The notes under the pieces were generated by a model that ran no database searches, was not told where the DNA came from, and worked only from the letters and a program-made list of their open reading frames with translations. A DNA stretch of 55,162 bases, counting the filler, from Thelocarpon superellum (taxonomy: Eukaryota), in NCBI GenBank assembly GCA_026025795.1. It is 2 parts of 2 records of this genome, joined end to end, with 100 filler letters (N's around TTAATTAATTAA, not from the genome) between each part and the next. Parts side by side here need not be neighbours in the genome. Positions count along the whole stretch, not along the records: positions 1 to 27,553 come from JAPEUG010000243.1; 1 more part is not named here. One strand, given 5' to 3'. Below, piece by piece: positions 4,601 to 28,325 of the stretch. How positions within the stretch are numbered: position 1 is the stretch's first letter; every line of letters starts with the position of its first letter. Made by a program: the position numbers and the translations under genes.

Positions 4601-7600
4601 CTTTGGCTTGTCTTGTGTGACAGAGCCCTCGGATAAGTCGACCGCCTTCCAGTCAATTTCTCCCATACGGCGCACTACCTGCGCATACGTCGACTTGATA
4701 TCGGGGTCGTCAATTGGAACGAATGAAGTTCGCCAGATTGGGGTGTTGGAGATGACGGTGGTCCACGCGTTATGAAGACGCTTCACGTCAACGCCGGGAG
4801 CGAGTTTCAGCATAACTTGATTGCCGTATAGAACACCATTCGAGCGCGTCAGCTGCGCCGTCATGGCTTCTTGCAATGGCGTTGCCGGGAGGACACAATC
4901 AACTGAGCTCAGGTCAAAATGTATGCTCGAAAGGTATCGGCGTATCTCTTGTTCTTGAGCGTCAAGCACCTCTTCGCCTTCGGGTTTGTTGATAGGATGT
5001 TCACCGCGAAAAAGACGTCCGGCCATGTTGAGAATGCTTCCGGACTGCATGATGTCGCTGACAGAAAGCGCAATGCCGAAGCGGTGTAACCTCGAGGACA
5101 GCTTGATAGCGTCGATGCTGTCTAGACCAAGCTCAAAGATGGAACTCTGCTCGGTGATGGCCGATTCATCACTTCCGGTGAGTGTTGCAATCTCGCTCCG
5201 TATTTGACTGGCTGTGGGGGACCACTCATATTCTTGAGCCATGCCCCCACCGAGCGCAGAGGTCTTTCTAGTCATGGGCATCTCGATGGATCTAGGCCGA
5301 TGAGCAAACTGTACCATCTCCATCGAAGCGGATACCAGGGCGCAAGGATCACTTGTCATCGCGTCGAGAGCTTGCTCCGTTTTCCCAAGCAGTGTGTCTG
5401 ATCTCGCTCTGTGAGAGATTGTTCCGTCTGTGACAACAGTCAAGGTCAAGCAATCATCCGATCGAGATCGTGCCTCAAATGCGAGGAGGAACTGTGACGG
5501 TTAGCTAGGAAGGCGAATCCGCCCCAAGGACTTACATCGGGAAGTAATGCCTCATCGTGGAGTGAGTTGACCTCCTCTAGCTCAGTCGACATGGTTTGAC
5601 TCTCTTTCTGGAAGCTGAAGATAATGTCAAAGAGTGGATTGCCTGCGGATCGATTGCACCATTTCATGATGTCTCGAAGTGGAGTATGCTGGAAGGGTAA
5701 GATAGACGTGTTGAGATCGTGGCATTGGCGAACCAGATCAGCCCATGTATCCGTCGGATCAAGGTGAATCACGAAAGGAACGGTGTTGAATAGGGGACCG
5801 ATGGTTTCGTCGATGCCCTCAATGTCCAGAGATCGACCGGATACCAACGTCCCGATGATGACCGGACTAGGTAGAATCGAGCGAAGTACGGCGATCCAAC
5901 ATGCTTGGATGATGGCCTGGTGCGTCGTCCCGAGCCGTCTTCGCAATTTCTCCATCCCCGTCGCCGTGACATGTCGGGTCACTGGTGGGACCGAGCATTC
6001 CGAGATCTCTCGCGTTGGGAGCGGATGATATTCTGCGCCTGCCAGAAGCTTGGTCCAGAACACAGACGCTCCTTCAACCCGGCGAAGGGGACCCCGTACG
6101 AGCACCTCCTGAAAGGAAGGACCATAAGAAATCCCCGACGCTTTCTTGTACTCCTTCATGACGCGATCCAACATGAGGTCGTGGCTCCAGAAATCGTAGA
6201 GAGCATGATGATGGAAGATGCCGAGCTGGACCTCTAAACGCTGACGGAAGATGACTAGCTGGAACGGGGTCGTGATCATGGCTTGGTTTTGCTTGTGCCA
6301 CGTCTTGAACTCCAAGGCCTTTGCGGACGACGAGTCTCCGTCCTCCTGCAGGTGGATTTCCTTCCACAGGAGCGGGGCATTTTTGATAACCGCTTGAGCA
6401 TGACCATCCGCCGTCGACACGAAACGAGTCCTGAGGATATGCGCTTTTTCCGCTACCGTTGCCCACGCGTCGCGAAATCGTGCAAGGTCCATGTCCTCCG
6501 CGAGGCGATAACAGAATGCGGAGAAATAGAACGGTCGACCGCTCGCAGTTGACCGCGCAATCATCGCTTCTTGTAGCGCGGTGCAGGGGGCGATACCTTC
6601 GATGACATCGACGGGTAGGTGCAATGCTCTCGACACGGAAAAGGCATGTTGGTGCGCGAACGCGGCCATTCGCTGGCGGACGTCCACGTCGGCGGCTTCA
6701 GTAGGAGCGCGAAGGAGGTCTGTTCCTCCCCCGCGACACAGCACATCGACCAACCGCCCTACAGTGTTATGTTCCAAGACGACCGACGTCTGTGCCGTGG
6801 AGAATCCAGCCTCTCTCAGGGCCCGAGCAAATGAGATGACCGTGATGGAATCCAGCCCAAGGGTGAAGATGCTCGATTCCAATTGCACGTCCTCTGCCCC
6901 CACCCGGGCCATCTTTGCCAAGATCTCCACGACTCTTTTCTGCGGATCAGACAACGGGCCTCGATCGCGGACTAGACTCTGTTGGAGATCTCGGAGTTGT
7001 TCGATTGGGATCCTGCTGAAGAGCTCTCGCAGTTCGCGTGCATCTGCTTTGTTATTTGCGGAAAGAGGAATGGCGGTAAGGGGAACAAAAAAGGTCGGAA
7101 TCATGTACGCAGGCAGTCGATGCCGACAAGCATCGCGAGCGAGGCGAATCACGGTGCCGCCGTGGCGATCATATTGTGCTTGGCCACGGCTCGCACCGTT
7201 TTTCGTGGGACGGGTGACGAAGAAGGCAATCAAATGCTCTCGCCGCGAAGCCGAGTGCTGCGCCAAAAGGGTGACGACTTCGGATACCTCCTTCACACCA
7301 GCTCGAATGACTTGGTTGATCTCGTGGACCTCGAGGCGCTGGCCTCGGAGCTTTACTTGGTCATCCACCCTGCCAAGGTACTCGAAGGAGCCATCGTATA
7401 GCACGCGAACCATGTCACCGGTCCGATAGACCCTCTCCTGGAACTCGTCAAGGTACGGAAAGCGTTCCTGAGTGAGCTCGGGTCGATTCAAGTACCCTCG
7501 ACCGACGAGCTTCCCCGACACGCAGAGCTCACCAATGCCGCCACGCGGGATGAGCATGGCGGTCCCGGGGCGGAAGACGTAGGAACCAACGTTATCGTAT

Positions 7601-10600
7601 TGTGGGCCAATATTGGCGGGATTCCCATCGCGCGGAACACGTCGATTCATCGTACAACCGATGGTGACTTCGGTGGGGCCGTAGCCGTTGAAGATGCATA
7701 ACTTCGGCCCCCATTGGTCGAGGACGTCTTGATTCAGGCGCTCTCCGCCCGTGATAAAGGCACCATCTATCAACGCGGGCGCGTCTTCGGGAGAGATGAG
7801 CTTGGCGAGGCTCGGGGTAAGGTCAACGTGCGTGACCTCCAGCCGACGAATGGCCCGAGCAATGTCCTCAAAGATGAGATCTCGAGGGGCGGACGTAACG
7901 CAGATGCCCACGCTCCAGCTCCAGTATTGTTCCATGACGCTGACGTCGAAATGAAAGGACGCAAATTGTAGGAAGCGTGAATTGGGTTGCCATCGTCCCG
8001 CCAACAGCCGTTGGAAAGCCAGCGTGAATTGTACGGCATTGTCGTGGGTGATTTCGCAGCCCTTGGGCGTCCCGGTAGTGCCTAGCCCATGTTCCATCAG
8101 CGAGAGCTATGCGGTCAAGAAATGCCTTACCTGACGTGTACAAGCAATAGCATGTGTCGTCTGGTGTTGCTGGGCGCTCCAGCTTCACGGGCGCCTGAGG
8201 AAATCTCGACAGCGCCTCCAGGTCGTCGAGGGCATAGATCGAAGCGGTGGTGTGTCCCCGTAGCTCGGTGGCACGTCTCGACATGGTCAACACAAGGTGC
8301 GCCCCTGAGTCTTGAATCACGAATGCTTTCCGCGCGGCAGGCGCGTCGGGGTCCAACGCCACAAAGGCACAGCCCGCCTTCAAGATGCCGAGGATGGCAA
8401 AAGACGCTTGCGGGCACTTGTCGAAACAGATGCCAATGAAGCCTCCTGGCCGCGCCCCGAGAGTCACCAGCAGGTGGGCGACTCGATTTCCGAAGCGGTT
8501 CAGCTCGCGGTAGGTCCACTGGGACCGAGTGAGATGATCGTCGGATAGGTCAGTCGTCCACTCCAGAGCGACTCGATCAGGCATGGCACGGGCATGCTCC
8601 TCGACAAATCCATGTAATACCGACACCTCCGAGGCAATTTCCGCATCGACTGCCGGCGTGGCGGATAATATTGACGCTTCCAGATGAGACGTATCCGTAC
8701 AGTCCTGGTGTGGGCGTAAGACGGTGTCAATCAAGACGCCGTCGAGCTGTTTCAGTAAGATCTCCGCCTGTTGCGCTGACAGCACATCCTCGCGGAAAGT
8801 TATCCGAAGATCGAGATCATCCTCATCGGTCGGCTCGAGCTCGATCGAAATGGGAAACTGGATCGGTTAGGAGAGCTACACTGGTCATGGAGGTGGCGTC
8901 GTACCTCTGCCGTGGCCACTTCTTCGATGATTGTCCAGGGTCGAGCTTGGTCTTCTACGAAGGTGGGCAGCTTTTGAAAGGCAAAGACGGTGTCGAACAA
9001 TGCGTGACCAACATGACCTGTCAATCGCTGGATGGTCGACGAGGGAGTGTGTTGGTGTTCGAGCAGGCCGTGGCTCAGATGCATGATCCTGCGGACCAGC
9101 GAGATATTGTCGCCATGAAGCGAGCACACCATCGGCACCGTGCTGATGCATGGAAAGGCGACGGTGGCCGTGAGGTGTGATGCCAATCGGCCCGAGAGAA
9201 TCAGGCCAAATGTGACGTTGTCATCACCGAGATAGGCGGCAAGGATGCGGGCCCAGGCGGCCTGCCCGGCGGCCTGCAATGCAATCCCGTTGGTCTGGCA
9301 TGCTTTTGCGAGCTGCGCCAAGGACCACGTAGACCTCATCGAGCGCACCACGACCTTCTGGCTCTCTACTCGGGTCGAGGTGATCGTGGGAAACTTGCTG
9401 ATGTGCATCGTCTCGCCTAGCTTGCGCCAGAAGTGGTCTCGGCCGGGTGGCGCTGCTTGGGAGGAATGCAAGATCGAGGCCATGGCAGGTTCCACGGACT
9501 CAGTAGGTGCAAGTGGATGAGCATGGTACGCCCTGGCAAGATCGGCAAGGAAGCATTGGAGTGAGATGGCATCGTAGAGCGCGTGGAGCACCGAGACCTG
9601 CACTAGGCATGTCTCTCTATCCTCAATGACAGACCATCGCCACGCGGGCGCATGAAGACGCGAGACCATTTCAGCTGACCACCGATGACGGAGGTCTTGA
9701 GTCGCGACCAGGGGGTGGGATGGCACAGGATCATCGACATGTGGCACGCCCCCCTCCTCCGCGCGGTAGGTGATCATGACAAATGGGTGATGGGGATCGC
9801 CCGTCTCGCAAAAGCCGGTGCGCAGCATGTCATGGTTCTTCGTCACGAGATCCCAGGCCGTCCGAAGACGACGACGGTCAAGACGGGGCCATCGCAGCAG
9901 ATAGTGATTAAGATACATGGACCCCTGGGACTGGACGAAGCGGGCAACGATGCCCGCCACGAGAGGGGTACATGGCCGGACTGCTTCCACGAGTGATGGA
10001 TCAATCGAGGCTGCCTTGCATACGAGCGCCCGAAATTCCTTGTCAAAGGATGCAAAAGCAAAGCTCGGCGTGTCGGAGGTCGAGCTAGGCAGATTAGTGC
10101 GGAGATGCTCTGCTAGAGCAGCGGGCGAGGGGTGCTGTTGGACCGTCAGAGCGCACACGGCCGATCAGGAGCCACATCCGTACCTCTAGCACATCGCTGA
10201 CTGTCACTGCCACCTCCTGTTCCCGAAGTTGCGTAGCAATTTGGGCGGCAGCCAGACTGTCAATGCCCAACTGGAAGATGGTGACGGTGCGCGAGATGTT
10301 CTGGATCGGATATCCCGACAGGCTGGAGAGAATCTCTCGAATTATGGACTCCGTTTCCGTCCAGGTCTCGACGTCTTTTGACGGCAAATGTTGCTCGCCT
10401 CCTGCTTCTCGGTATGAATGTTCCAGCGATCGTCGGTCGATTTTGCCGGAGGATGATCGCGGAAAGTCATCCAGTAGTACAACATCCCCGGGTCGCATGA
10501 AGCTCGGCAGCCAGCGACGACAAGCATCCATGACGCTGGTCACCCGGGAAGTGGCGTCCGTCCGGAGAGCAAATACGACGAGAATTCCGTCGATGACCAC

Positions 10601-12499
10601 CGCGGTCGGACTGTGGACGTCAGGAGACTGATCGACGGCATATTCCACTTCGGACAGCTCTACCCGCTGGCCACGTAGCTTCACTTGGCCGGACGTGATC
10701 CGTCCGAGGAATTGCAGGGTACCGTCGGGTAAAAGGCGTGCCTTATCCCCAGTTCGGTATACTCTTCCATGCTCGCTCGAGAAGGCAAAGGCGGCCTTTG
10801 TCTTTGCCGGGTGGTTGAGGTAGCCATGAGCGAGCTGATGACCCCCGACAGCTAATTCTCCGACGTGACCCACTGGTAGTGGCCTGACGTGGGCCGGGTC
10901 ATCGGCCGCAATCACCAAGGCCGAGACGGTCTCGAGTGGCTTGCCAATGTTGGCTGGCTTTGCGTCTCGTGAGCAAGGGCTGACCAACGTGCAATGAATT
11001 GCGGCCTCGGTCGGTCCGTACATGGCGTGCAGGATGTTGGGAGTATCGTTGGAGCCACCGAACTCCTGCACGACCGAGCTCGTCAACAACTCGCCGATGG
11101 TCAGGAGCAGTCGGAGACCGGGCACCTGCTTCCTCGTACGCAAGAGGGCCCCGGCAACGGTGGGAGTCAGCTCGGCCGCATCGATCTCCATGTCGTGCAT
11201 GACCGAAGGCAGCCGCGTGAGTAGGCCATCGCGATGGCATCCGACCAAGGTGGCACCACGAAAGAGAGGAAAGAAGATCTCGAAGATGGAGACGTCGAAG
11301 GAAGGCGCGGCAAACTGCAAGAATCGATGAAACGGAGGAAGATGCTGTTCATGAGCCAGGATGGACTGGGTCACGGCGGCGTGAGACACGGCGACGGCCT
11401 TGGGCAGGCCGGTCGAGCCGGAGGTGTACATGACATAAGCCAGGTCGTCGGGCGTCGGCGTGTAGCCGTGGATCTCCTCCGCGTTCGCGTCACGGTCATT
11501 AGGGCAATCTGTGACTAGCACGGACGGGCCATGCTCCCACGTTACTCGGCTTTCTAATGACACTTCCGTGATCACCAATCTAGCCGCGACGTCTTGCGCC
11601 ACATGCTTGAGGCGTTGTTCGGGTGCATCTAGATCGACCGGGCAAAAGGCCGCACCGGCCTTGAGCACGGCGAGCAGGGCGACATACAATTCGGGCCGCT
11701 GGGACATGAGAATCGGGATGATGCGCTGCCTGGATCCGAGGACGTCGTCGTCTGTGACGAGCATCCCCCTGATCCTGGCCGCCAACGCGTCGGATCGGTC
11801 ATGTAGCCTCTCGTACGAGTAATGCTCTTTCGTACCATCGCCGTGCAAGAATTCGATGGCATCGGCGTGCTGGGTCGAGGTCTTTCGTACCAGATGATGC
11901 AGCAGCCGGGCGCCTGGCATCACCGCCGGCGCTGGATTGAGCACGGCCAACATGAGTCCGTCCACCGCTCGCCATGGCATGGGCTGCGTCGACGGACCAT
12001 GGAGCCAGTTCACCAAGGAAGCCAGCTGCTTGCCAATCTGCGGGAGATGTTCGGGCGGAAGCCAGTCCGAGGCATGGAGCGTGACGCGGTCTGATGCGGG
12101 ATCAACGAGCAGGGCAAGAGCGGGCGGCGGGCTGGCACGGTCGAGCTACGAAACCACCTCAGCACATGATCAAGGCGGGCCTCTGAGGTCACGTCACACC
12201 TCTCCAGTCTCGATGCTCGTCCGGGCCGCACGACGTGAGAGCTTCTCGTCTACGTCCACGGTGGCACGCGCCGCCCGCGAGACATCGAATCGGATGGCCT
12301 GATGGTCCACCAGGAAGACGGGCTGTTCTTCACCCGCGTAGCCACGTAGCAGATGAGCCCAAGCACATATCCACAGGCTCAGTGGAGCAGGTGTCAATTG
12401 GAGGGAAAGCGACGCGGTGTCCCCAGCCGGAAGTACTGGTCGACGGTGGGAGCGAAGGTCGGGAAAAGGTGTGTAGCCATGAGCCCGTTCTGCCGACAT
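1608..12499 (-). CDS. sidC: Ferrichrome/ferricrocin-type siderophore NRPS (SidC/NPS2 family), domain order A-T-C-A-T-C-T-C-T-C, about 3500 aa, 7 exons
   Basis: A1 has YVMYTSGSTGLPKAV, FDVSIFEIF, YGPTEAAI and YRTGD. A2 has YCLYTSG|TTGTPKGC, FDVSVMEQYWSW and YGPTEVTIG. Four T motifs (FQLGIDSL, FTLGLDSI, FELGLDSI, FHLGLDSI) and four C motifs (LHALYDA, HHALYDF, SHALYDG, HHALYDA). Six GT-AG introns join the ORF-track pieces in frame. The C-terminal A-T-C-T-C-T-C is typical of ferrichrome synthetases. Confidence 0.9.
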
Positions 12500-13012: not shown

Positions 13013-14811
13013 TCAGAGGCCCGCCTGCTTCACCACGGCGGCGACCTTGTGCGCCAAATCATCGGCCTCGGACCTCGTGGCCGCCTCGGCATAGACGCGC
13101 ACGGCGTCCTCGGTACCGCTGGCGCGGGCGAAGGAGCGACCGTGCTTGTACTTGCCCACCAGCGCGTCAATCTGTTGCTGCACCCCGGCGGGCGACTCCA
13201 AGCGCCGCTCGGCGTCGACCGCTTTGAATTGACTCCGGTCCGGCACCTCGACGCGCACAAGCCGGTTGGGGAGGTCGGTGTAGGTATTGTCCCACTCCTG
13301 TGGGCCCCAGCTCTTGTGCGCCAGGATGACCTCGACCAGCAGGAGGTCCGAGAGCGAGTCGCCCACCGTTTGGTTGATCAGGTCCGACAGCGCGCGCAGG
13401 CTCTCCACCGCCGCGTGCTGCGCCGGTGACTGCGGCTCGTGCGTCGCGAGCGCGCGCAGGGCCGCGCGAGAGAAGACGACGGTGCCGTGCCCGTTGGCTT
13501 CAAAGTAGACGCCGATGTCGAATTGGGTGGCGGCGTGGTGCAGATACTTGACCCCCGTCGGGGTGCAGACGACCGGCAGGCGGAGCGATTGCGTGACGTA
13601 GGCCGTGCTCGAGCCGTTGGCATACGCCGTCTGCACCACGCCGACCTTCAACTCGGACGCCAGCCCGGCCGACTTGGCCAGCTCACCGATGAACGAGGCC
13701 ACCAGCGTCGCAATCTTGTCCCCGTCCAGCAGGTGGAAGACGCTGTCAGCGTCGAGGAAGTAGAAGACGATCCGGTCGGCGTCCCCGTCCAGCGAGGCAC
13801 AACGCGCCGACGGGCCGGCCTGGGACGAGGGCGGCGAGCGTTGTTGTGTCTTGACGTAGTCGGCGCCGCACTGCGTCTCCTGGTCAATCGCCGGGGCATC
13901 AGCGGCCGGGCACCGAGCTTACCTGGTGATTCAGCCGCTCGGGGTGGAGCACGTCGTCGTTGACCACCTTGATCTCCACCCCCCCGTCGGCCCGCGGCGG
14001 CAGATACTTGATCAGCTCCCGGAGCTTTCCGCCACCCACTCCGTTGGCGCAGTCCACGGTGATCGCCCCGTTCGTCTTGCGACCCTTCATGACCTTGGCA
14101 AACGCGGCGCTGAGCTTCTCGTAGTACCCGACCTCGCTGGGCGTGCCGTACGCCTGGGGTGTGCCTTGCGTGTTGATGCATCGGACAAGATAATGCAGCT
14201 GGGGCGTGGTGAGCAGTCGGAAATCCGTGCACTCGGCCGTCGTGGCGGTCAGGGCGTCGGTCAGCGCCTCTACGAGGGCCGGGCCCGATGCGCGCGTGTC
14301 TCGGGCAAAGATGACACGCGCCGGGGTGTCTGACTTGATCTTGAGCGCCTCTTCCAGCTTCGTGTAGGCCTCCAGCAGGCTTTCGTCCGTCGGCGCATTG
14401 GCTAGTTGCGTCGCATGGCCCTCCCACGACGCCTCGAGCATCTCGCCCATGGGGTCCACCAGCTTGACCCCATTGTCTTCGGGCGGATTATGACTTGCCG
14501 TGATCATGACCCCGATCGTCTGTCCGTTCATCTTTCGTGATCGCAGACTCGCAAGCAGACCAACGCGAAAGACGACCGAGTCCAGAAGATTACTACGCCC
14601 GTGTCAGACCCATGCATCGGCCCCCGGCTTGAGCTCCTGCACATACGCTTTCATGCGAAACTGGGGTGCACGGTCATCAGCATCGTCTTTTCCGTCGGCG
14701 CCGAGCGGCCGGGACTCTCGCACCTACCCCAGCAGTTCCATATTGAAAGGTACGGTCCGCGGGCTTCGGATGCTTGCGTGAGGCAACGAGCACGCGCTCC
14801 GGAGACGACAT
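13013..14811 (-). CDS. AGM1: Phosphoacetylglucosamine mutase
   Basis: N-terminus MSSPERVLVASRKHPKPADRTFQYGTAG, catalytic GVMITASHNP, metal loop SLDGDADR, GVYFEANGHG and RASGTE. Several GT-AG introns. Confidence 0.95.
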
Positions 14812-15030
14812 GATGACCGTGAGGCAGGGGCCGTGAATTGAAGGCACGATCACGGTGGTAGGTCCGGTCGAGTCCAGGCGCAAGCTTCCGGGCGGTGGTG
14901 TGACGGGGGCCGGAAGAGGGGAAATGAAGAGGGAGGGGCAGCTGGTGTATTGCCCCCGCCAGCCCCATTTCCCCATCCATCCCAAGAATGACGATCTTGG
15001 AGGCTGAGTCATCAGTGACGTAAATGGCGG

Positions 15031-15215
15031 TGTGGTGGATCTGGGGGATCACGTGCACTTTTACCTAATTATTTACTAGTCAGTGGTGCTTACTGAGACA
15101 GAACCCTATGCTATAAAAGGGTTGTCTCACAGATAGCTGAATTCACCATCTTCACCCTCCACTGTGATTGGTCCAATTTGCTGAATCCAAGAGGGAACCC
15201 TGCACCTGATCTTCA
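15031..15215 (+). repeat. 5' LTR (185 bp)
   Basis: TGTGGTGGATCTGGGGG...GATCTTCA. Differs from the 3' LTR at 5 positions, all CpG>TpG/CpA. Confidence 0.95.
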
Positions 15216-15232
15216 TGGTGACCTTGGCAGGG
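15216..15232 (+). other. Primer-binding site (TGGTGACCTTGGCAGGG); repeated at 18442-18458
   Basis: Begins with TGG immediately after the LTR's terminal CA, complementary to a tRNA 3'-CCA. The TGGTGACC start resembles tRNA-Trp-type PBSs; tRNA identity is inferred only. Confidence 0.7.
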
Positions 15233-15541
15233 CCCTCACCATTGTCATAAGGATCCAGTGAGTGGGGCTGATCAGGGGAGTGGAGATCCTCCCAACAGGG
15301 TGGGAGTGAGGATCTGACCAGCAAACAGAACAGCTGCAAACAGGCCAGTATCGACAGGCAGAGAGGGCCAGATAGACAAACAGAGAGATTCGAACCTATC
15401 AGCCTATTGATGAGACTGTCGAGTCTCCAGAAAACACCTTGACCTGAATGATTGACAACAGCCCCAGCAGAACTGACACTGAAGGAGTGAGACCAGAGTG
15501 TGACATACACTCGCTGGTTAGGGAAGTGGCGAATTCGACGA

Positions 15542-18249
15542 ATGGTTCTTTCCACCAGCAACAACAACTCCCTAGAGCACAGCAAGAGGTCTAACACTCT
15601 CCCCTCTCGCCACCATGCTTGTCTCTCTCTCTCTCCTACCTGTGTTACCAGCTTGGAGGTAGGAGACCTAGCTAAAGGGTTTGAATCTTTCTCCCTCTCT
15701 GTGGAGGAAAACGAGCACCCAGAGGACAGAACAACAGTCTGCTGCCAGCCTGCTCCCCAGCCAACCCATACATCAACCCTGGCCTCACACTCCCCTAGCC
15801 CAATCAGCAAAGAATCAGCAGGTCCATTGGACCTTTCCCCACAATCCAGTGTGTCGACATCACCCCCTCGACTACCACATACCCAGCTGTTGGCAGCAAC
15901 CCAGTGCACCACCAGCGACATGCAGTTCAAACCATTTCTCAGGCTGCGAAACAGGAAGGAGGACCTGGACAAGTATCTAGAGGACATCGAGTTCGCCTAT
16001 GAAACCTCTCATCAGGGACACACCCCCAAGAATGCCCCAGACATAACCAAGCACCACAACAATACCAGCTGCATCCTCTTTCGCCAGAACTTAAAGGGGG
16101 CTGCTGCTGATTGGTACATTGACCTGAGCAAGGAGGTCAAAAGCAATTAGGTGGATCTGAAGGAGGCTTTTCTGAAGGCCTATAAGGTGGAGAGCAACAA
16201 GGCGGTGGACAAGTACATGCTGCTTCAACAAGTTGCCAACCTCGCCCAAGGGAAGGACAAGTCTATCATCCAATACCTGAGGTGGGCTGAAGAGCTCTAC
16301 CAACAGCTCCCCGATGACACCATTGGCTTCAACATGGTCAAAGGGATGAAGGACCTGCACCAGTGTGAGAGAGTGACTTTTGAATGCACTAAGGAACAAG
16401 ACTACATGTTTGAAAAGGTCTGACGCGTGGTAACAGCAGCGTACCAGACCCTTGCACAGAACAGACCATTTGACTATGGGTTGGTGGGAGAACCTCAACC
16501 AACAGCAGGGGTCAGCGAGAGTGACTGGAATCAACAGATTCTGCCATCCATCCTGCAGGGACTGCAGAACCTCAGCATGCAGAACAAGGCCATATTGGGT
16601 CATTTCCAAGGGGCCAGTTGGCCAGCACCCATGCCAGATCAAGGATGTTTGCTGAACCCCATGGGATGAGCCAATGTCACCTGTTTCACCTGCAATCAGA
16701 AGGGGCATTACAGCAACGAGTGCCTACAGGGAAATCAGCAGCCTCGATACCAAGGGCGATCAGCATCGCAGCCTCCTATGGTGGCTGCTTAGGCTGCCCT
16801 ACAAGGCAGGCAAGCGGCAATGTACACAGAGGCCAAAGCCATCGAAGAGGAGGAAGACCAGTTCAAGGACGACTATCATCCCGCAGCCTGCGTCCTCCCA
16901 ATGACAATGGCCATGGCAGCAGCCCAACCCAAGGGGAAGACTTGCGCTGGAGGACTAGTGACAAGGGGACCTATGCGCATCCAGAAGGATGGCACCACTG
17001 CCCAGACTCAGGCGAGACAAGCAGCCCAATTGTGCCAGTCCCAGCTATCAGTGGCATACTGGCTGGAAGAAAATCCTCACCCAGGACAGGAGGGAGAGGG
17101 GCCAATGGGTGAAGGGCAGGTGGAGGACATGGACAAAGGGGAGGACTTGATCAACACTCTTCGCCCCAAGGTAGTGGAAGGTGGAGTCAAAGGTGAGGAC
17201 TTTGAGGGCCCTCTCCCCAAGAAGAAGATCATCAAGGGGAAAGTGAAGGAGCTGGTGGCACCCTGCTGACTGAAGGCGCCTGACCCAATCCGAGCAGTCC
17301 AAGGGGAAGCCTGGTTCGACCTGTGGCAAATCATGGGGATGGAGGTGACACTCCCATTGGGCCAATTACTCAACGAGTCAACCTATCTCTGTTGTGAAAT
17401 GGCATGGGGGATGCAGACCTCAACCCCTCGCTACTGAGTCAAGAAGGCACCCAAGCCAGTCCCCGAAATAGTGGTGGGAGCCGCAATTCCAGCCTGTTAC
17501 CCAAGTCGGCCATTCCCCCCAGAAGTGACAACCCAGGCATTGTGAGATGATGGAGAGTCGAGGCTGCTGTTCATCACCTCCTGGGTGAATCAGGTGGAGA
17601 TTCCAAGGACCCTGATCGACAGAGGGTCGCTGGTCAAGCTGGTCAGTCAGCGAGTGATGAATCGCCTTCTGAGGGTGAAAGTCCATACAGATGGGCACAT
17701 CAACATCAGCTTGGCAGACGACAAGAATGCCACCTTGACCTGATACACTTGGATCCTAGTAAACGTGGAGGGGGTGGAGGCGGTTGTGAAGGCCTATGTC
17801 CTCCCAGTGACAGCATACAACCTATTACTGGGAATCTGATGGCAGCGCCAAGTACAGATGCAGATCGACCATGGCTGCAGAGCAGTGACATTGGCAGGAA
17901 CTGACAGACAGACCTGGCAGGTGATGTCAAAGCTGGCTCTGTCTGATATCACTGGGCAGCTTCCAGTGGTGGAGATGGAAACAGAGGACGAAGACGCAGA
18001 CACTGAAGATCTTCTCCAGGCCATCATTGACGACAATGAAGATGAGGAAAAAGGGCAGCGCTGGTGAGTGGCCAGGGCTACCATCAGTGCTCAGTCGACC
18101 CTGGACAATCGAGTCAACACACCCCAGACCAGGGAGTGAAGTCACCTCCACTGCTCGACATGTCCAGATTGGTCCAAGATGACGCCATGGCCGAACTGGC
18201 GATTCTCCAGGACCTAGACAAAGAAGAAGTATATCGCTACACCCACACA
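15542..18249 (+). pseudogene. gag-protease copy 1 plus the first ~200 bp of the pol frame (truncated duplicate)
   Basis: Gag-like EDLDKYLEDIEFAY...LKGAAADWY, CCHC knuckle CFTCNQKGHYSNEC (16682-16723) and degenerate protease LIDRGSLV. Many in-frame stops. Offset 3226 bp from copy 2. Confidence 0.9.
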
Positions 18250-18258
18250 CGCAGTCGC

Positions 18259-18441
18259 TGGTGGATCTGGGGGATCACATGCACTTTTACCTAATTATTT
18301 ACTAGTCAGTGGTGCTTACCAAGACAGAACCCTATGCTATAAAAGGGTTGTCTCGCAGATAGCTGAATTCACCATCTTCACCCTCCACTGTGATTGGTCC
18401 AATTTGCTGAATCCAAGAGGGAACCCTGCACCTGATCTTCA
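18259..18441 (+). repeat. Internal third LTR lacking the first TG (183 bp)
   Basis: Matches LTR positions 3-185, is preceded by a 9-nt non-homologous filler (CGCAGTCGC) and is followed by the PBS. Confidence 0.95.
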
Positions 18442-18767
18442 TGGTGACCTTGGCAGGGCCCTCACCATCATCATAAGGATCCAGCGAGTGGGGCTGATCA
18501 GGGGAGTGGAGATCCTCCCAATGGGGCAGGAGTGAGGATCTGACCAGCAAACGGAACAGCTGCAAACAGGCTAGTATCGATGGGCAGAGAGGGCCAGATA
18601 GACGAACAGAGAGATTCGAACCTATCAGCCTATCGATGAGACTGTCGAGTCTCTAGAAAACACCTCGACCTGAACAATTGACAACAGCCCCAGCAGAACT
18701 GACACTGAAGGAGTGAGACTGGAGTGTGATGTACGCTTGCTGGTTAGGGAAGTGGCGAATTCGACGA

Positions 18768-21293
18768 ATGGTTCTTTCCACCAGCAACAACAACTCCCTA
18801 GAGCACAGCAAGAGGTCTAACACTCTCCCCTCTTGCCACTGTGCTTGTCTCTCTCTCTCTCCCACCTGTGTTACCAGCTCGGAGGTAGGAGACCTAGCCA
18901 AAGGGTTTGAATCTTTCTCCCTCTCTGTGGAGGAAAACAAGCACCCAGAGGACAGAACAACAGTCTGCTGCCAGCCCACTCCCCAGCCAACCCATACATC
19001 AACCCTGGCCTCACACTCCCCTGGCCTGATCAGTGAAGAATCGGTGGGTCCATTGGACCTTTCCCCATGATCCAGTGTGTCGACATCACCCCCTTGACTA
19101 CCATGTACCTGGCTGTTGGCAGCAACCCAGTGCACCACCAGCGACATGCAGTTCAAACCATTTCTTGGGCTGCGAAATGGGAAGGAGGACCTGGACGAGT
19201 ATCTAGAGGACATTGAGTTTGCCTATGAAACCTCTCATTGGGGACATGCCCCCAAGAATGCCCTAGACGTAACCGAGCACCACAACAATACCAGCTGCAT
19301 CCTCTTTTGCCAGAACTTAAAGGGGGCTGCTGCTGATTGGTATGTTGACCTGAGCAAGGAGGTCAAAAGCAATTGGGTGGATCTGAAGGAGGCTTTTCTA
19401 AAGGCCTATAAGGTGGAGAGCAACAAGGTGGTGGACAAGTATGTGCTGCTTCAACAAGTTGCCAACCTCGCCCAAGGGAAGGACAAGTCTATTATCCAAT
19501 ACCTGAGGCAGGCTGAAGAGCTCTACTGATGGCTCCCTGATGACACCATTGGCTTCAATGTGGTCAAAGGGATGAAGGACCTGCACCAGTGTGAGAGAGT
19601 GACTTTCGAATGTGCTAAGGAACAAGACTATGTGTTCGAAAAGGTCTGACGTGTGGTAACGGCAGTGTACCAGACCCTTGCACAGAATGGACCATTTGAC
19701 TATGGGTTGGTGGGAGAACCTCAACTGATGGTGGGGGTCAGCGAGAGTGACTGGAATCAACAGATTCTGCCATCCATCCTGCAGGGACTGCGGAACCTCG
19801 GCATGCAGAACGAGGCCATATTGGGTCATTTCCAAGGGGCCAGTCGGCTAGCACCCATGCTAGATCGAGGACGTTTGCTGAACCCTGTGGGACAAGCCAA
19901 TGTCACCTATTTCACCTGCAATCAGAAGGGGCATTACAGCAACGAGTGCTCACAGGGAAATCAGCAGCCTTGATACCAAGGGCGATCAGCATTGCAGCCT
20001 CCTATGGTGGCTGCTTGGGCTGCCCTACAAGGCAGGCAAGCGGCAATGTACGCAGAGGCTGAAGCCATTGAAGAGGAGGAAGACCAGTTTGAGGACGACT
20101 ATCATCCCACAGCCTGCGTCCTCCTAATGACAATGGCCATGGCAGCAGCCCAACCCAAGGGGAAGACTTGTGCTGGAGGACTAGTGACAAGGGGACCTAT
20201 GCGCATCCAGAAGGATGGCACCACTGCCTAGACTCAGGCGAGACGAGTGGCCCAATTGTGCTAGTCCCAGCTATTGGCGGCATACTGGCTGGAAGAAAAT
20301 CCTCACCCAGGACAGGAGGGAGAGGGGCCAATGGGTGAAGGGCAGGTGGAGGACATGGACAAAGGGGAGGACTTGATCAACACTCTTCGCCCTGAGGTAG
20401 TGGAAGGCGGAGTCGAAGGTGAGGACTTCGAGGGCCCTCTCCCCAAGAAGAAGATCATCAAGGGGAAAGTGAAGGAGCTGGTGGCACCCTGCTGACTGAA
20501 GGCGCCTGACCCAATCTGAGTGGTCCAAGGGGAAGCCTGGTTCGACCTGTGGCAAATCATGGGGATGGAGGTGACACTCCTGTTGGGCCAATTACTCAAC
20601 AAGTCAACCTATCTCTGTTGTGAAATGGCATGGGGGATGCAGACCTCAACCCCTCGCTACTGAGTCAAGAAGGCACCCAAGCTGGTCCCTGAAATAGTGG
20701 TGGGAGCTGCAATTCCAGCCTGTTACCTGAGTCGGCCATTCCCCCCAGAAGTGACGACCTAGGCATTGCGAGATGATGGAGAGTCGAGGCTGCTGTTCAT
20801 CACCTCCTGGGTGAATCAGGTGGAGATTCTGAGGACCCTGATTGATGGAGGGTCGCTGGTCGAGCTGGTCAGTCAGTGAGTGATGAATCGCCTTCTGAGG
20901 GTGAAAGTCCATACAGATGGGCACATCAACATCAGCTTGGCAGATGACAAGAATGCCACCTTGACCTGATACACTTGGATCCTAGTAAACGTGGAGGGGG
21001 TGGAGGTGGTTGTGAAGGCCTATGTCCTCCCAGTGACAGCATACAACCTATTACTGGGAATCCGATGGCAGCGCTGAGTACAGATGCAGATCGACCATGG
21101 CTGCAGAGCAGTGACATTGGCAGGAACTGACAGACAGACCTGGCAGGTGATGTTAAAGCTGGCTCTGTCCGATATCACTGGGCAGCTTCCAGTGGTGGAG
21201 ATGGAAATGGAGGACAAAGACGCAGACACTGAAGATCTTCTCCAGGCCATCATCGACGACAATGAAGATGAGGAAAAAGGGCAGCGCTGGTGA
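18768..21293 (+). pseudogene. gag-protease copy 2
   Basis: ORF pieces at 19116, 19653, 19992, 20274 and 21084 share one frame. Aspartic protease motif LIDGGSLVELVS at about 20838. Interrupted by TGA/TAG stops. Confidence 0.9.
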
Positions 21294-24200
21294 GTGGCCA
21301 GGGCTACCATCAGTGCTCAGTCGACCCTGGACGATCGAGTCAACGTGCCCTGGACTAGGGAGTGAAGTCACCTCCACTGCTCGACATGTCCAGATTGGTC
21401 CAAGATGATGCCATGGCCGAACTGGTGATTCTCTGGGACCTAGACAAAGAAGAAGTATATCGCTACACCTACGCAGCAGCAGCCTTAGCTCAGAATCCAG
21501 CTAGCCACCAACCCTTCTCAATGTAGAAGAAAGGGTCATTTCCAACCATCTGCTGGCTGGTGTCATGACCTCTTAGTGGCGAGATCAGCCAAACAATCCA
21601 GGAATGGATCAGTGCATCAGGTGTCACAATTGGTCCCCTAGCAGCTACCCCAGCAGAGCAGGAACGAGCAGGTCGACTGGTGTATACCTACTGAGACCTC
21701 TTTGTGATGTTGGTGAGAGGGATGCAACCCACTGACCTAATCGAGCATTTGATCGACTTGAAGGAGGGGGTGCGACTGGTGATAGGATGAGTTCCCTGGT
21801 ACACCCCCAGAGAACAAGAGTTTGCCAACACCATCTTTCCTGAGATGGAGGAAGCTGGTATCCTGGTTAGGATGAGTAGTGAGTGGGGAGCCAGGACCAA
21901 GTTCCCTCTAAAGAAGAAGGGAAGTGACCAGATGCGAGTGGTCCACAACTTCATCCTGCTCAATGCTTGTACTGTCAAGTCGGAGTACCCCATGCACAGA
22001 CTTGAAGAGGTGCTAGACATCCTCATCAAGCCGAAGTTCACCTGCTACTCGAGCACTGATGTGTTGAACAGATATTGGGCCATCCCCATGAAGGAGGGGG
22101 ATGAGTACAAGGCTGGGATAGTCACACCCCATGGGCAATATTGCTATCGACGGATGGGGCAGGGATTGAAGGGAGCACCCCATACCTACACCCAGTTCAC
22201 TGATCTCGTGTTTGGTCCAATCCCAAGGTCCGACACCTCCCCACAAATGGCCACCATCATTGGGGATCATGGGTCAGCTGTGATGGCACCCTTCATGGAC
22301 GACCACGCCATGGCGGTGACCTCTTTTGACGCTATGTACCATTTCCTTGCTGAGAGCTACTTGCCCAGAGCTGTGTTTGGGCCAGTCTACCTCAACCTGA
22401 GCAAAACCGAGCTCTTCATGGCAGAACTGGAGCTCATCGGCTTCACAGGAGGCCCAGAGGGCCTGCGCCCATCTGTCAAGCACTGGTCCAAGGTCCTGGA
22501 CTGGCCTACTCCTACGAATCGAGGGGAACTAGATGGATTCCTCTGGCTCACCCCTTTCCTCTAGATGTTCATCCTGGGTTGAGCTGACCATGTGATGGCA
22601 CTGAAGGAGGCCTATCTACAAGAGGTGCCTGCTGACCCAGTCCCACCCTGACCAGCCCTGGACATAGAGGACTGTGATTTAGACCCAACCAAACGAGTTC
22701 GGCCCTCTCGACTGAAGAAGGAAACAATACAGCAGAAGTGGGCTGAGACAGGAGAGTGGAAATGGGGGCCCTGGCAAGAGAAGTTGTTTAATCACATCAA
22801 ACAGTCAATCTCAGACAACGCGATGGCTGGAGCTGACCACAACCTCCAATTTCACCTCACTGGAGATGTGAGCAAGTGAGCTGTGGGAGGAGTGCTCTTC
22901 CAACTCCACAGGGAACCAGCAGGTACAGAACTGACAATGTCCAACTTCAAGGTGGTACAGATCATCATGTTCATGTCATACCGCCTATCTGATGCCAAGA
23001 CCTGCTACCCGAATATGGAAAGGGAGTGTTTAAGCATCGTGAGGTGCTTGGCAGAAGTGAGGTGGTTGGTAGTGGGGAACCGATATCTGGTAATGGTCTA
23101 TTCAGACCATAGTGCCCTAACATCTATCTTGACAAAAGGAACTGATGGGCATGGAAGGATAGCGATGTGGCAAAATCGGTTGGGGGAATACAACTTCATT
23201 GTCAAGCACTGACCAGCGAAGGACAACATGATTGGTATTGCAGACAGATTGAGCCGATTACCAGTGGCTCTCTCAATGACCTATCAGCCAGACAATGACA
23301 CCCCTCTGGCAATGCCAGCCCTCGAAATCGAACAGCGACAACCATCGAGCAGAAGGGCGCCAGCCCAACCCACCCAACCAGCAAACCTGCGACAAATCGT
23401 CCAATATCCCCATCTAGAGGACCTGTGGGCCAAGTACTGGCAAAGCAAGCGGTTCCACCACATTATCACATTCCTGCGATTTGGCAGGGAAGCACTTGGG
23501 GATCTTCCTAGGCCAGAGCTACAAGCTGTGATGAGACAAGCCCCTTCCTATTCAATTACAGCGAAGCCTGGCCTCCTCCTCTACCAAGAGGAAAATGGGT
23601 CAGAGGCACTGTGCCTGGTGGGCCACGAAATCGAGCGGATCCTCGAATATGCCCATGACAGACACAGCCACTACAGTGAGTCAATCATGCTGGATAGGCT
23701 GATAGGGGAAGGGTATTGGCCCACTTGCACAAGGGATGTCAAGGTGTGGTGCCGAACCTGCTATGTGTGCTAGGTGAAAGGGCTGAAGCAGTGGAAGGGG
23801 CAGCTGAGGCACATACAAGAGTTCGAACCCATGTGGATGATGGGGATCGACTTCCTCAGACCCATCAACCTGCCCTGCTCTCAGACTGGGAACTGATATG
23901 TCCTAATAGCTGTGGATTACTTCACCTGATTTACATGGGCCAACACATACAACGCCTGCACCATGGTGGCCATGGCAGATCTTCTCCACAACCACATCTC
24001 GCCAGCATTTGGGTGGCCCCAGGCCATCTACAGCGACAACAGTTCACACTTCACAGGAGTGGCAATCAATCAACTGCTTGAGGCTCACAGAATCAGCCAT
24101 TTCACAGCTCTGGTTACCCACCTGTCATCAGTGGGGCTGATCAAGAGAAATGTGCAGCTGGTGATGTCACAACTCAGGAGGGTTGCAATAGACTCTGGCT

Positions 24201-24892
24201 CTGCACAACCCCCCTGGTTGATCTACCTCCCTGAGATCACAGTGGCCATTAACACGCAACTCATGAGGATCCACAGATACAGCCTGGCGCAGTTGCTCTT
24301 GGGATATAACCCTTCTCTGGTACATATACAGGAAAGGACCATTCCCCCAACTGACGACAAGTGGGAAGCGCAACCCAACCACATTTACGCCATGCATACC
24401 CAGATGCGAAAAGAGAACCGCCAACTGGCGACTGAATCCCTGACTGCCCACCAAGCTCGCATCGAAACAGGCCATCCAATCCAGCAGGGGACCCTGACAG
24501 AAGGAGACTTGGTGCTGATCAGAGACACTGTGCTCGACAACCAGAGAGGCCGCAAACTGGATCCGAAATGGCAAGGGCCCAGGCTGTTAACGCAGTTGAC
24601 CAAAGGGGGGCTGAGCGGAGATGTGCGCCCACTCTACAGGGATGGGAAGACCAGGCGATACCACGTGGATGATATGAAGGTGTACCATTCCAGATCCTGA
24701 GGAGCCTTGATGCCTTCTGTCACAGAGATTGAACCACTCGACGAAGGGGTCAGAGTAGATCTGACCAGCCAAAGTCTCACAGCTCTGGCTACAGGTCACA
24801 GTCCAGGGAGGCCGACTGTGACCACGATGAGAGGAGCAATGAAGTGGGCAGGGGTGCCAGGACAAAGAGCGGTCTTCCTCGCAGTTGATTAG
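21272..24892 (+). pseudogene. pol (reverse transcriptase - RNase H - integrase), -1 frame relative to gag-PR
   Basis: RT: MRVVHNFILLN, STDVLNRYWAI, RMGQGLKGAP, PFMDDH. RNase H: GDVSK*AVGGVLFQ, YPNMERECLSIV, YSDHSAL. Integrase: HDRHSH...CRTCYVC, GIDF, YSDNSSHF, and the GPY/F motif PKWQGP. Multiple stops. Confidence 0.92.
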
Positions 24893-25324
24893 GATCAACT
24901 GAGAGGGCTCGATGGTGGCGAAGAGTGGGGAAAGCGGGTGAATATATCGCCACCACTCACCTACGCGTCCCTATCTCGCCCCCCCCCCATCCCTGCAGCC
25001 AAAACTCGACCTCCATCCTACCTCCTCATCACCTACTCGCGATCGCAACGACTCGCTCCAGAGGACCATTTCAACGACCTTTGGCACTGCCAGCGGCTGG
25101 GGGACATCGCTCATCATCCTCTACTATCCCTGTTTTCTCACACTGTTGCACTCGCAAGTCTAGCTGAACTATTGGCTCATTAGCTTCGACCCCCTCACTT
25201 CAGTTCCTAGGGAAGAAGTCCTACGAGCTCCACTCCCTTCAGCGAGTCCGCCCCCCCCCCCGAGCCCTCATCAGAGACCGTCCTCTCACAAACCCCTCAC
25301 TTCTGATTGGCGCATCTGCGAAGA

Positions 25325-26767
25325 ATGGCCTAATCATCGACAGGAGCCAACTACTTCCACCTCCTCGAAGTGACTGATAGGTCAAGTCTCAACCAGATCT
25401 GTGCAGTGTGGAGGCGCCAGTCGAGACACACCCACCCTGATCACTTCCCAGCTGAGCAACAAGAGAGCCAGACGGTGAGACAGCAGGAAATCAACACAGC
25501 TCGAGACACCCTGATCAGCAACCTGCTACACATGGACTACATGCACACCAACCTACTCTCACTCAAGGAGTATTTCGCACTTGGGCCAGTGGAGAATCTC
25601 TGTGTGGTCCTGCCCCTCAACCCAGCTGAGGAAGGATCCCGCCCCACATCTCCAAATGGGCCATTTGGAGCGACTGAGGCAGGACCGCCCACCATGGAAA
25701 ATGTGTTCTGGAACGTCACCCTGGAGAAGGGGATCCTGATGGGAGAACTGCGAAGCGATCCACATCCCCGGCGTGTGGTGCTCAGGGTGTTCAATGAGAA
25801 TGGAGCAATAATGAGGTGTGTCTCCCCATTCAACTCTGCTGGGAACCTGATCAACGTGAGGGCCAACACCTTATACCGCACCTACTGGGGAGCCTCGGTG
25901 AAGCGACCTGACGTCGCCTACTACAAGGGATGGGGCAATGCAGTGACTACTGAGAAGGGCGAGGGAGTCAAGGTTTTTGAAGCAATGAGAGAGTGGGGAT
26001 GGACGGAAGGGTGGGGATACCAGGATTACCACCACATGCGCTGGTGCCACCATGCCCACACCAATACCGACAAGTCCCGCTGCTGGAAAGCCTCAGACAC
26101 CTACGACAATTTGAAGCTATTCAAGAAGACTAGGGTGAGTAGTGAACTAGTCAAGGGTGTCATGGATGGATCATTCCAGGGAATCAAGTCGGCCTACGAA
26201 GGAGTCTTGGAGGCGACGACAGAGACAGCAAGCTCAACGAACGACACCACAGCTTGGAAGAAAGGGAACGCGTACTTTGTCAACCTGCAATGATTGGTCG
26301 ATACTGCTAACATCCTTCTGGTGGAGCATCACGAAAAGGTGCCTGATTGGAAGGTGGAGGAAACACCCATGGGGGTGTCCCAATCCGACCATCCGGCAGC
26401 CAGTCACCCAGAAGCTGATCACCCAGCAGCGGGGCCCGACCCGCAGCACCCACATCCAGACAAAGGAGTGGGGCAATTGGCGGAAGCGCAAGCAGGGCAG
26501 ATGGCAGAGCAACCAACAGGTGAGGAGGGAGAGGAACTCGAGACCCCTGCTGTTGCTCTAGTACTTCAGCTAGAATACCATCCAGTCGAAGAAGAGATAG
26601 GGCCCATGGATTCGGTGATAATATCGGCCCCACTGACCCAATCGGAGGAGCCATCGACCCCGCCAAACCCGCTGGAAACCTCCACAGAGACTCCCGGATT
26701 CATTCTGATCTCAGACTCGCTGGACTATGCGCCACCATCGCTGTTCTCCACCTTCGATATCGAATAA
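25325..26767 (+). pseudogene. Accessory ORF3 of the retroelement: N-terminal DnaJ/J-domain (HPD), unassigned middle domain and acidic/Pro-rich tail; 480 aa if two stops are reverted
   Basis: The frame from ATG 25325 reads MA*SSTGANYFHLLEVTDRSSLNQICAVWRRQSRHTHPDHFPAEQQESQTVRQQEINTARDTL. ORFs 25370-26293 and 26294-26767 are in the same frame, separated by one TGA. Confidence 0.75.
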
Positions 26768-26850
26768 ACCCGACGAAAGGAACCACCTGCTCCATCTCAC
26801 CACTCAGTGCGACAGGTTTCTGCTAATCCGCCGAGGGCGGCGGATTTTTC

Positions 26851-26864
26851 GGGTGGGGGGGCGT
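26851..26864 (+). other. Polypurine tract
   Basis: GGGTGGGGGGGCGT lies directly before the 3' LTR and follows a T-tract. Confidence 0.8.
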
Positions 26865-27049
26865 TGTGGTGGATCTGGGGGATCACGTGCACTTTTACCT
26901 AATTATTTACTAGTCAGTGGTGCTTACCGAGACGGAACCCTATGCTATAAAAGGGTCGTCTCGCAGATAGCTGAATTCACCATCTTCACCCTCCACTGTG
27001 ATTGGTCCAATTTGCTGAATCCAAGAGGGAACCCTGCACCCGATCTTCA
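26865..27049 (+). repeat. 3' LTR (185 bp), least mutated copy; TATAAAA at 26946-26952
   Basis: TG...CA termini, followed by TSD GCGG. Retains every CpG that is mutated in the other two LTRs. Confidence 0.95.
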
Positions 27050-27230
27050 GCGGGCAGCCAATCATCAGCAGGGATGCGACCACCACCGCCGCGCACGAGG
27101 GTCCAAAGACCAGAATGAGCCCAAGAGAGCTGCAGGTCTAGTCGACGATCGTCGATCAAACGGCCGGTGGCGTTCGTAGGTGCCAAGAGCCAAGCACAGG
27201 AGGCACAGCCATTCTCTGCTTCCCGCAACC

Positions 27231-27553
27231 ATGTTTACTGGCATCGTCGAGACCATTGGGGGCAAGTGGTGACTCTTTCTTTACAGTCGGGTCTCAGAAG
27301 GAGATGCAACTGACGAATAGCGCAGTGGTGCTGGATCTGGTGGAAAAAGACGAGTCGGTCACCGGCGGTGGCGGCACCTCGTTGACCATTGCCGAGGCGA
27401 GCGACGTGCTCGGCGACGCCCATCTAGGGGATAGCATCAGCATCAACGGCACCTGCCTGACCATCACCGAATTGACGGCCGCGACCTTCAAGGTGGGTGT
27501 GGCGCCGGAGACGCTGCGCCGCACCAACTTGGGCTCGCTGGCCGTCTCGTCGC
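27231..27553 (+). CDS. RIB5: Riboflavin synthase (5' part, truncated at contig end)
   Basis: Diagnostic N-terminus MFTGIVETIG, an intron, then ...LGDSISINGTCLTITE...FKVGVAPETLRRTNLGSL. Confidence 0.93.
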
Positions 27554-27653
27554 NNNNNNNNNNNNNNNNNNNNNNNNNNNNNNNNNNNNNNNNNNNNTTA
27601 ATTAATTAANNNNNNNNNNNNNNNNNNNNNNNNNNNNNNNNNNNNNNNNNNNN
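27554..27653. other. Artificial contig spacer (N44-TTAATTAATTAA-N44)
   Basis: A six-frame stop linker flanked by Ns. The genes on both sides are cut off at it. Confidence 0.95.
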
Positions 27654-28255: not shown

Positions 28256-28325
28256 CGAGGATGAGCTGGGAGTAAAGTCTCCGTGTACGAGGATGAGCTG
28301 GGAGTAAAGTCTCCGTGTACGAGGA
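28256..28325. repeat. 32-bp perfect tandem duplication upstream of PUP2
   Basis: CGAGGATGAGCTGGGAGTAAAGTCTCCGTGTA twice, followed by CGAGGA. Confidence 0.9.

Follow-up and report, generated by a model that had tools for sequence, protein, structure and literature searches.

A predicted J-domain gene downstream of pol in a decayed Ty3/Gypsy retrotransposon of Thelocarpon superellum

The large and small T antigens of polyomaviruses carry J-domains, through which these viruses use the Hsp70 of the host, and auxilin and HscB/Jac1 are class C (type III) J-domain proteins. Long terminal repeat (LTR) retrotransposons, to our knowledge, are thought to use host chaperones and not to encode chaperone regulators, and the Boty elements of Botrytis reportedly carry an antisense gene, brtn. 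Published work describes LTR elements of plants in which env-like genes or sense-strand additional open reading frames (aORFs) lie between pol and the 3' LTR (PMC7264820), captured open reading frames in LTR elements of bdelloid rotifers (PMC5408684), an m6A demethylase domain in orchid Ty3/Gypsy elements (PMC9289625), and a Ty1 cofactor screen that lists the Hsp70-system components Sse1 and Zuo1 (PMC3522557). The Ty3/Gypsy element described here lies in a stretch of 55,162 nucleotides from the Thelocarpon superellum assembly GCA_026025795.1 (the window, two parts joined by filler). Between its pol gene and its polypurine tract it contains an additional open reading frame, ORF3 (25325–26767, + strand), whose predicted product begins with a J-domain. 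ORF3 is a real and unusual accessory open reading frame of an LTR retrotransposon; its function and its ownership by a lineage of such elements are unproven.

Several features of this locus recall the systems named above. As in the polyomavirus T antigens, a mobile or viral genome encodes an N-terminal J-domain with an HPD motif, followed by unrelated functional domains. Polyomaviruses, however, are DNA tumour viruses of animals and not retroelements; the ORF3 gene is dead, and the engagement of Hsp70 by its product is presumed. Like the aORFs, ORF3 is an extra gene between pol and the polypurine tract that was probably acquired from elsewhere, but none of the aORFs compared is described as a J-domain protein. 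ORF3 differs from the class C J-domain proteins in its core, for which Pfam, PDB and BFVD offer no detectable relative, and in the location of its gene within a retrotransposon. A full-text literature search, with subscription-only papers and supplementary annotations of transposable elements outside its scope, found no description of an LTR retrotransposon with a J-domain gene. PMC5408684 gives a count of 0 for each of DnaJ, chaperone, J-domain and Hsp; PMC7264820 gives 0 for DnaJ, and chaperone appears there only in a speculation about env-like proteins.

The ORF3 gene and its J-domain

ORF3 has its own ATG and comprises 480 codons, and its conceptual translation reads M-A-stop-SSTGANYFHLLEVTDRSSLNQICAVWRRQSRHTHPDHF..., equally M-A-stop-SSTGANYFHLLEVTDRSSLNQICAVWRRQSRHTHPDHFPAEQQESQTVRQQEINTARDTL... 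The only in-frame stops are TAA at 25331–25333, TGA at 26291–26293 and the terminal TAA at 26765–26767; the first two inactivate the gene. A preliminary description of this locus had given the same coordinates, motif and stops, and all of these are correct. The ORF3 frame holds three stops versus 14–21 in each of the other five frames, and 2000 shuffles of the same bases give a mean of 19.1 stops (standard deviation 4.2) with a minimum of 7, so the open frame is not a product of chance. By tblastn, 30 of 30 family proteins align to the ORF3 stretch. The alignments of 14 of them run past the TGA at 26291, and nine of these 14 stop at 26353–26362; because homology crosses the TGA up to the C-terminal end of the family, this stop represents secondary damage. 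Both internal stops are consistent with the transition spectrum of the element, and with 2 stops in 480 codons ORF3 shows no significant difference in stop density from pol (13 in 1136; Fisher p 0.26). The gene genuinely codes for a protein but is now dead in this copy.

The beginning of the frame is also supported by the family. Relatives that possess the N-terminal domain have a methionine 3–9 residues ahead of the motif N-[YHL]-F, matching the ATG at 25325. Since the placement of this methionine is the same, ORF3 has its own start, and the branch point (CTAAT) and acceptor (CAG) of a spliced mRNA, which the preliminary description had offered as another way to read the 5' end, are unnecessary.

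The J-domain spans 25349–25570 and includes helices I–IV, with the HPD codons at 25433–25441. Residues 6–62 match positions 1–55 of the 63-position Pfam DnaJ profile (PF00226) with an E-value of 1.2e-5 and 25.7 bits, a score below the curated gathering cut-off of 27.8; the closest relative, P0001, scores 31.1 bits, above the cut-off. Sequence searches of the PDB point in the same direction: five of six matches to the 79-residue N-terminal piece are J-proteins, 11 of 13 matches to the family profile are DnaJ entries, and the HPD of ORF3 aligns to that of DNAJC12, DNAJB2 and HCG3.

An AlphaFold2 model of the ORF3 piece starting at 25334, built on 23 sequences, has a predicted local distance difference test (pLDDT) score of 92–97 across the first 80 residues and 82 overall. 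Helices are predicted at residues 7–10, 19–32, 40–61 and 63–72 of this piece, giving the four-helix fold of a J-domain, in which helices II and III pair as an antiparallel hairpin, and H34-P35-D36 lies in the loop between the second helix (19–32, II) and the third (40–61, III). Arginine residues are present on helix II in both the window copy and the closest relative. The Foldseek list for the N-terminal domain consists mostly of J-domains, with TMt values up to 0.85 and a root-mean-square deviation of 1.2 Å, and no E-value reaches 0.001 for this small domain. Homology and predicted fold together establish the N-terminus of ORF3 as a J-domain, in agreement with the pattern recognized in the preliminary description, which had named a profile search and a fold search as checks; the first gave a DnaJ match below the curated cut-off and the second mostly J-domains. 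We infer from this that the domain would act on Hsp70.

Downstream of the J-domain, a proline-rich linker (25631–25690; 20% proline) is predicted to be disordered, with pLDDT below 50 for residues 100–119 of the modeled piece. The conserved core of the family follows at 25685–26353, approximately residues 125–345 of ORF3 (about 220 residues), and combines a beta-rich part with helices and, at its C-terminus, a helical hairpin. It carries the motifs DPxPxRxV, FNxxGAIMRR and GWGYxxYxHM ahead of the hairpin, which ends in the W-K/R of the family (W-K at the end of the core). The core has a pLDDT of 88.2, and tryptophan and tyrosine make up 8.6% of its residues. No known fold or relative was detected in Pfam, PDB or BFVD for the core of ORF3 or of the family, and the ESM Atlas yielded only leads below 0.9, which were DnaJ clusters when the whole protein was queried and unnamed clusters when the core was. 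The J-domain and this confidently predicted core without a detectable structural relative define a new fungal protein family.

The last 135 codons (26354–26764) form an acidic, proline-rich tail (19.3% aspartate and glutamate, 14.8% proline) that is found only in this copy; no relative aligns to it, and it has no Pfam match. ORF3 lacks a transmembrane-like segment (the highest Kyte-Doolittle mean over 19 residues is 1.06), no env family was found for it in Pfam, and its model is that of a soluble protein of helices and beta strands. In the absence of a transmembrane or signal-like segment, hydropathy and the model indicate that ORF3 is not an env. Composition and hydropathy thus bear out the tryptophan- and tyrosine-rich middle, the acidic, proline-rich tail and the non-env character reported at the outset.

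The family to which ORF3 belongs is small and undescribed. An exhaustive HMMER search of 1.84 billion representative proteins returned 21 relatives at E ≤ 1e-3, including 10 at E ≤ 1e-10; the best, P0001, has an E-value of 1.8e-30 and is colinear with ORF3 over residues 6–318. A word-index protein search found nothing of near length with ORF3, and with the family profile it retrieved only P0016. Organism names were obtained for four of the 20 relatives looked up, and all four belong to lichen-forming Acarosporaceae: one to Acarospora aff. strigata (MCJ1367491.1) and three to a single metagenome-assembled genome of Pleopsidium flavum (KAI9875811.1, KAI9874600.1 and KAI9845301.1). Two of the three Pleopsidium flavum members share 69% identity and differ by indels and an internal duplication. 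In three proteins of two clusters (P0020/P0030 and P0021) the amino-acid composition is strongly AT-biased, with a FYMINK/GARP ratio of 2.5–3.0 versus a family median near 0.9. Contigs shorter than 13 kb carry 18 of the 27 cluster members for which contig size is given, while some members lie on contigs of 81 kb and 1.1 Mb. The rarity and patchiness of the family, its mostly short contigs, the paralogues in one metagenome-assembled genome and the AT-biased members hint that it is repeat-associated.

A fortuitous HPD in a frame left open by chance is, on this evidence, a practically negligible explanation. The DnaJ score of the window copy does fall under the curated cut-off, but the 21 relatives, the fold match, the frame statistics and the tblastn alignments refute it.

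Element structure, decay and copy number

The position of ORF3 depends on where pol ends. The pol gene (21482–24892) occupies one frame with 13 premature stops, encodes reverse transcriptase, RNase H and integrase (Pfam RVT_1, RT_RNaseH, Integrase_H2C2 and a weak rve match) and closes with a TAG at 24890. Its read-through product has 66 relatives at E ≤ 1e-20 and shares 40–47% identity with Pol proteins of public assemblies along almost the full length of the product; the named relatives are those of Lasallia pustulata (47–63% over parts) and Chlorociboria aeruginascens (40%). Like this element, the ascomycete Ty3/Gypsy relatives have gag-pol, the order reverse transcriptase, RNase H and integrase, and a C-terminal G-x-P-G-Q-R-A, and their proteins end 0–24 residues after this motif. 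Of 46 related Pol proteins, 19 align to 24880–24901 with no more than nine residues left, and the end motif is common to them. Because related Pol proteins end there with the same motif, the TAG at 24890 is the natural pol stop, and ORF3 is therefore a separate post-pol gene inside the transposed unit. Comparison of the Pol relatives P0031–P0088 with 24850–24889 also places an extended form of the motif, G-x-P-G-Q-R-A-x-x-L, a few residues ahead of the stop.

The boundaries of the transposed unit are clear. The 5' LTR (15031–15215) and the 3' LTR (26865–27049) are each 185 bp long, begin with TG and end with CA in the alignment of the three LTR copies of the element, and differ from each other at five positions, all transitions. 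They are flanked by an identical 4-bp target-site duplication, GCGG, at 15027–15030 and 27050–27053, a match expected by chance about once in 256; a 5-bp reading gives no match. The sequence TGGTGACC... directly follows the 5' LTR in the position of the primer-binding site, and the polypurine tract GGGTGGGGGGGCG (26851–26863) ends one base before the 3' LTR. The Pol ends, the LTR alignment and the GCGG flanks confirm the placement of ORF3 in the preliminary description, between the pol stop and the polypurine tract and within the LTR and target-site boundaries. A real gene with the fold and motif of a J-domain, damaged by transitions, thus lies within the transposed unit.

All internal features of the element are on the + strand. 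A first internal unit (15216–18254), with a leader starting TGG, gag and part of the region ahead of the reverse transcriptase, is a truncated tandem copy of 18444–21479. It is followed by a middle LTR copy at 18259–18443, identified by self-BLAST and LTR alignment as was the 3' LTR, which lacks its first two bases. The gag region of the full-length unit (18444–21481) contains stops and frame changes and matches Retrotrans_gag (PF03732, E 2.2e-6) at 19098–19526. Five of 10 frame pieces have Pfam matches, and these run in the order Retrotrans_gag, RVT_1, RT_RNaseH, Integrase_H2C2 and weak rve along the + strand from 19098 to 24697. The LTRs with their target-site duplication, gag followed by reverse transcriptase, RNase H and integrase, and the positions of the primer-binding site and polypurine tract are those of a Ty3/Gypsy (Metaviridae) element.

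Between pol and ORF3 lies a C-rich spacer (24893–25324) with C-tracts at 24977–24988 and 25249–25263 and three stops in the frame shared by pol and ORF3. Its open piece of 96 amino acids has no Pfam match. The two C-tracts are 92–93% complementary to the G-rich tract at 26849–26863, and in RNA a 15-bp GC duplex of a C-tract with the polypurine tract could bracket the whole of ORF3. A scan of the spacer for bacterial promoters and terminators gave 0 sites, the models being bacterial and irrelevant to a fungus.

The decay of the element is best seen in its tandem duplication. Self-BLAST aligns 15033–18254 with 18259–21479, comprising the 5' LTR and about 3 kb of the gag side, as tandem units that are 94.2% identical, the first joined to base 3 of the next LTR. 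The units differ by 186 substitutions, all of them transitions and mostly at CpG, and at many CG dinucleotides one copy reads CA where the other reads TG. This pattern points to mutation of the repeats of this genome by a CpG-centred process, either repeat-directed or methylation-driven. That the tandem units differ by transitions alone and that homology continues across the TGA at 26291 uphold the earlier attribution of the two ORF3 stops to the C>T damage of the element.

Dinucleotide composition places ORF3 within the reach of this process. The ratio of observed to expected CpG is 1.0–1.08 in the host sequence (42 kb), 0.30–0.34 in gag-pol, 0.53 in ORF3 and 0.60 in the whole post-pol segment; TpG and CpA are raised in step with CpG loss over 15223–26864 relative to the flanks. 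ORF3 is CpG-depleted relative to the host, and the same decay process therefore struck it. ORF3 also has the A-rich sense strand of the element (AT skew 0.215, versus -0.07 to 0.10 in 11 of 12 host gene segments), and the spacer at 24893–25324 is without this skew. The third-position A excess of ORF3 (0.23, versus 0.04–0.17 in seven host genes and 0.17 after simulated decay) is a weak hint of long residence in the element. Codon usage was considered as a sign of long residence and rejected: the relative synonymous codon usage of ORF3 correlates with that of pol at r 0.74, versus 0.36–0.43 for host genes, but CpG-decayed host genes reach 0.71.

The composition of the spacer and ORF3, which differs from that of gag-pol, and the mutually complementary G and C tracts that bracket ORF3 would also suit an origin from another selfish or mobile unit nested in the Gypsy element and unconnected with the Gypsy life cycle. 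Such an insertion is very improbable, as ORF3 lies in sense orientation, precisely between the pol stop and the polypurine tract, and has no terminal repeats, target duplication or transposase-like open reading frame around it.

Copies of the element were sought, at a likeness threshold of 80%, in the only public sequencing run that contains the stretch, which is probably the source of the assembly. Two contigs cover 21440–26894 at single depth (95–120), with no variant letters in 22518–26893. In the 3' LTR (26906–27049) the summed contig depth is 800–3000, with up to eight variant contigs per site and several downstream flanks. This depth, set against the single-depth interior, indicates many solo or divergent LTRs of this family and one internal region. 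Two other runs of the same study (X2 and X3) contain next to nothing of the element.

Proposed carriage of ORF3 by the element

The best explanation of these observations is that the element acquired ORF3 and carried it as cargo or an accessory gene whose product, when intact, was a J-domain adaptor for host Hsp70, a reading to which we assign a probability of about 0.5. The Gypsy element would have acquired the gene and carried it in the post-pol ('env') position, and translation of ORF3 would have begun at its own ATG, on an mRNA that was either subgenomic or internally promoted. The HPD loop and basic helix II of its product may then have engaged host cytosolic Hsp70 and stimulated its ATPase, while the core domain would have selected a client or site, possibly the element's own Gag or particle or its pre-integration complex. 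These are the most economical clients because the gene is carried inside a retroelement. The mechanism is drawn by analogy from viral J-domains and from the reliance of Ty1 on Hsp70-system factors. The engagement of Hsp70, any role in transposition and ownership by an element lineage, as opposed to this one copy, are inferences.

Several results weigh against carriage as a functional accessory gene. Besides the DnaJ score below the gathering cut-off, the HPD motif is kept in only two of the five family members with the N-terminal domain (the window copy and P0001), being replaced by NPD in P0006, APD in P0008 and NPA in P0025. CpG depletion is milder in ORF3 than in gag-pol (0.53 versus 0.34, P 4e-4), as would be expected of a later arrival. 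Among the contigs of the source run, which show presence better than absence, neither the internal region nor ORF3 occurs a second time at a likeness of at least 80%, and no parental gene copy was seen at that threshold. None of the 21 relatives is longer than 480 amino acids (one cluster member has 523) or fused to pol, and no retroelement Pfam domain was found in the 22 relatives scanned. The ORF3 relatives have no match to the 66 Pol relatives (best E 0.023) and no contig in common with them, and none of the 66 carries an Acarospora or Pleopsidium tag. Collections of metagenome, viral and prokaryote-genome contigs, queried with ORF3, P0007 and the family and Pol alignments, yielded no locus of any ORF3 relative. 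The weaker CpG depletion, the free-standing gene models without retroelement domains and the lack of matches or shared contigs with Pol relatives hint in the direction opposite to a repeat-associated family.

These observations are partly those expected if this copy or a recent ancestor had caught a lineage-specific cellular J-protein gene in a one-off transduction, for example by template switching onto a co-packaged mRNA, the family being host-encoded and without a role in transposition. ORF3 is complete from ATG to stop, with an N-terminus like that of stand-alone relatives; the post-pol segment and ORF3 are less CpG-depleted (0.60 and 0.53) than gag-pol (0.34), and the spacer is without the A-skew of the element. 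In annotations the relatives appear as hypothetical proteins that stand alone, some of them on the long contigs mentioned above, and PMC7264820 documents gene transduction by LTR elements. Such an event is nevertheless less likely than the reading above: a parental copy at a likeness of at least 80% is not among the contigs of the source run (with the limit on absence given above), the family occurs rarely and patchily (21 of 1.84 billion representatives), and the damaged paralogues in one genome and the AT-biased members are unlike a conserved host gene.

The deviant HPD motifs bear on another possibility, in which the gene is element-borne and the N-terminal domain has lost its signalling to Hsp70 and persists as a 'J-like' scaffold, activity residing in the core or hairpin, for example in binding or oligomerisation. 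It would account for NPD, APD or NPA in three of five members and for a Pfam DnaJ match at E ≤ 0.1 in one of 22 relatives only (P0001, with none in the 21 others scanned), and the core motifs are much better conserved, with D142, F153 and W227 invariant in 13 sequences. The window copy and its closest relative, however, retain HPD in the correct loop and arginine on helix II, and the members with a deviant motif may themselves be decayed copies. Loss of Hsp70 signalling as a family trait is accordingly judged improbable.

Carriage of ORF3 by the element leads to a broader question of lineage. The preliminary description had proposed a fungal LTR lineage with its own co-chaperone; this was not borne out, as no second internal copy at a likeness of at least 80% and no relative's locus were found and HPD is kept in two of five members, and the proposal stands as a hypothesis at roughly even odds. 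In a fuller and more tentative form, a Ty3/Gypsy lineage in lichen-forming ascomycetes would encode its own Hsp70 co-chaperone, a J-domain joined to a client-binding fold not seen before, that recruits Hsp70 to particles or the pre-integration complex for assembly, uncoating or import; the damaged homologues in other lichen genomes would then be remains of such elements.

Genomic surroundings and significance

The element lies about 180 bp upstream of a gene with a lumazine-binding domain (Pfam PF00677, E 2.1e-15, 27298–27552), which, from its domain, probably encodes riboflavin synthase and is broken by N runs at 27554–27597 and 27610–27653. On the other side of the element, the - strand of 1608–12142 carries a large non-ribosomal peptide synthetase, whose five consecutive open pieces contain condensation, AMP-binding and PP-binding domains; the breaks between these pieces may be introns or damage. 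A phosphoacetylglucosamine mutase follows the synthetase at 13013–13915. Further along the window, 28256–28319 is a perfect 32-bp tandem duplication, consisting of two copies of CGAGGATGAGCTGGGAGTAAAGTCTCCGTGTA.

Apart from the question of lineage, this locus reveals a new protein family and a strictly transition-only, CpG-centred mutation of repeats. If the proposed role of ORF3 is true, the element would be a retroelement that controls Hsp70 directly, a capacity otherwise known from DNA viruses, and ORF3 would be the retrotransposon equivalent of the J-domain in polyomavirus T antigens and of uncoating of the auxilin type. The core domain would then provide a handle on which step of the retroelement cycle needs Hsp70.

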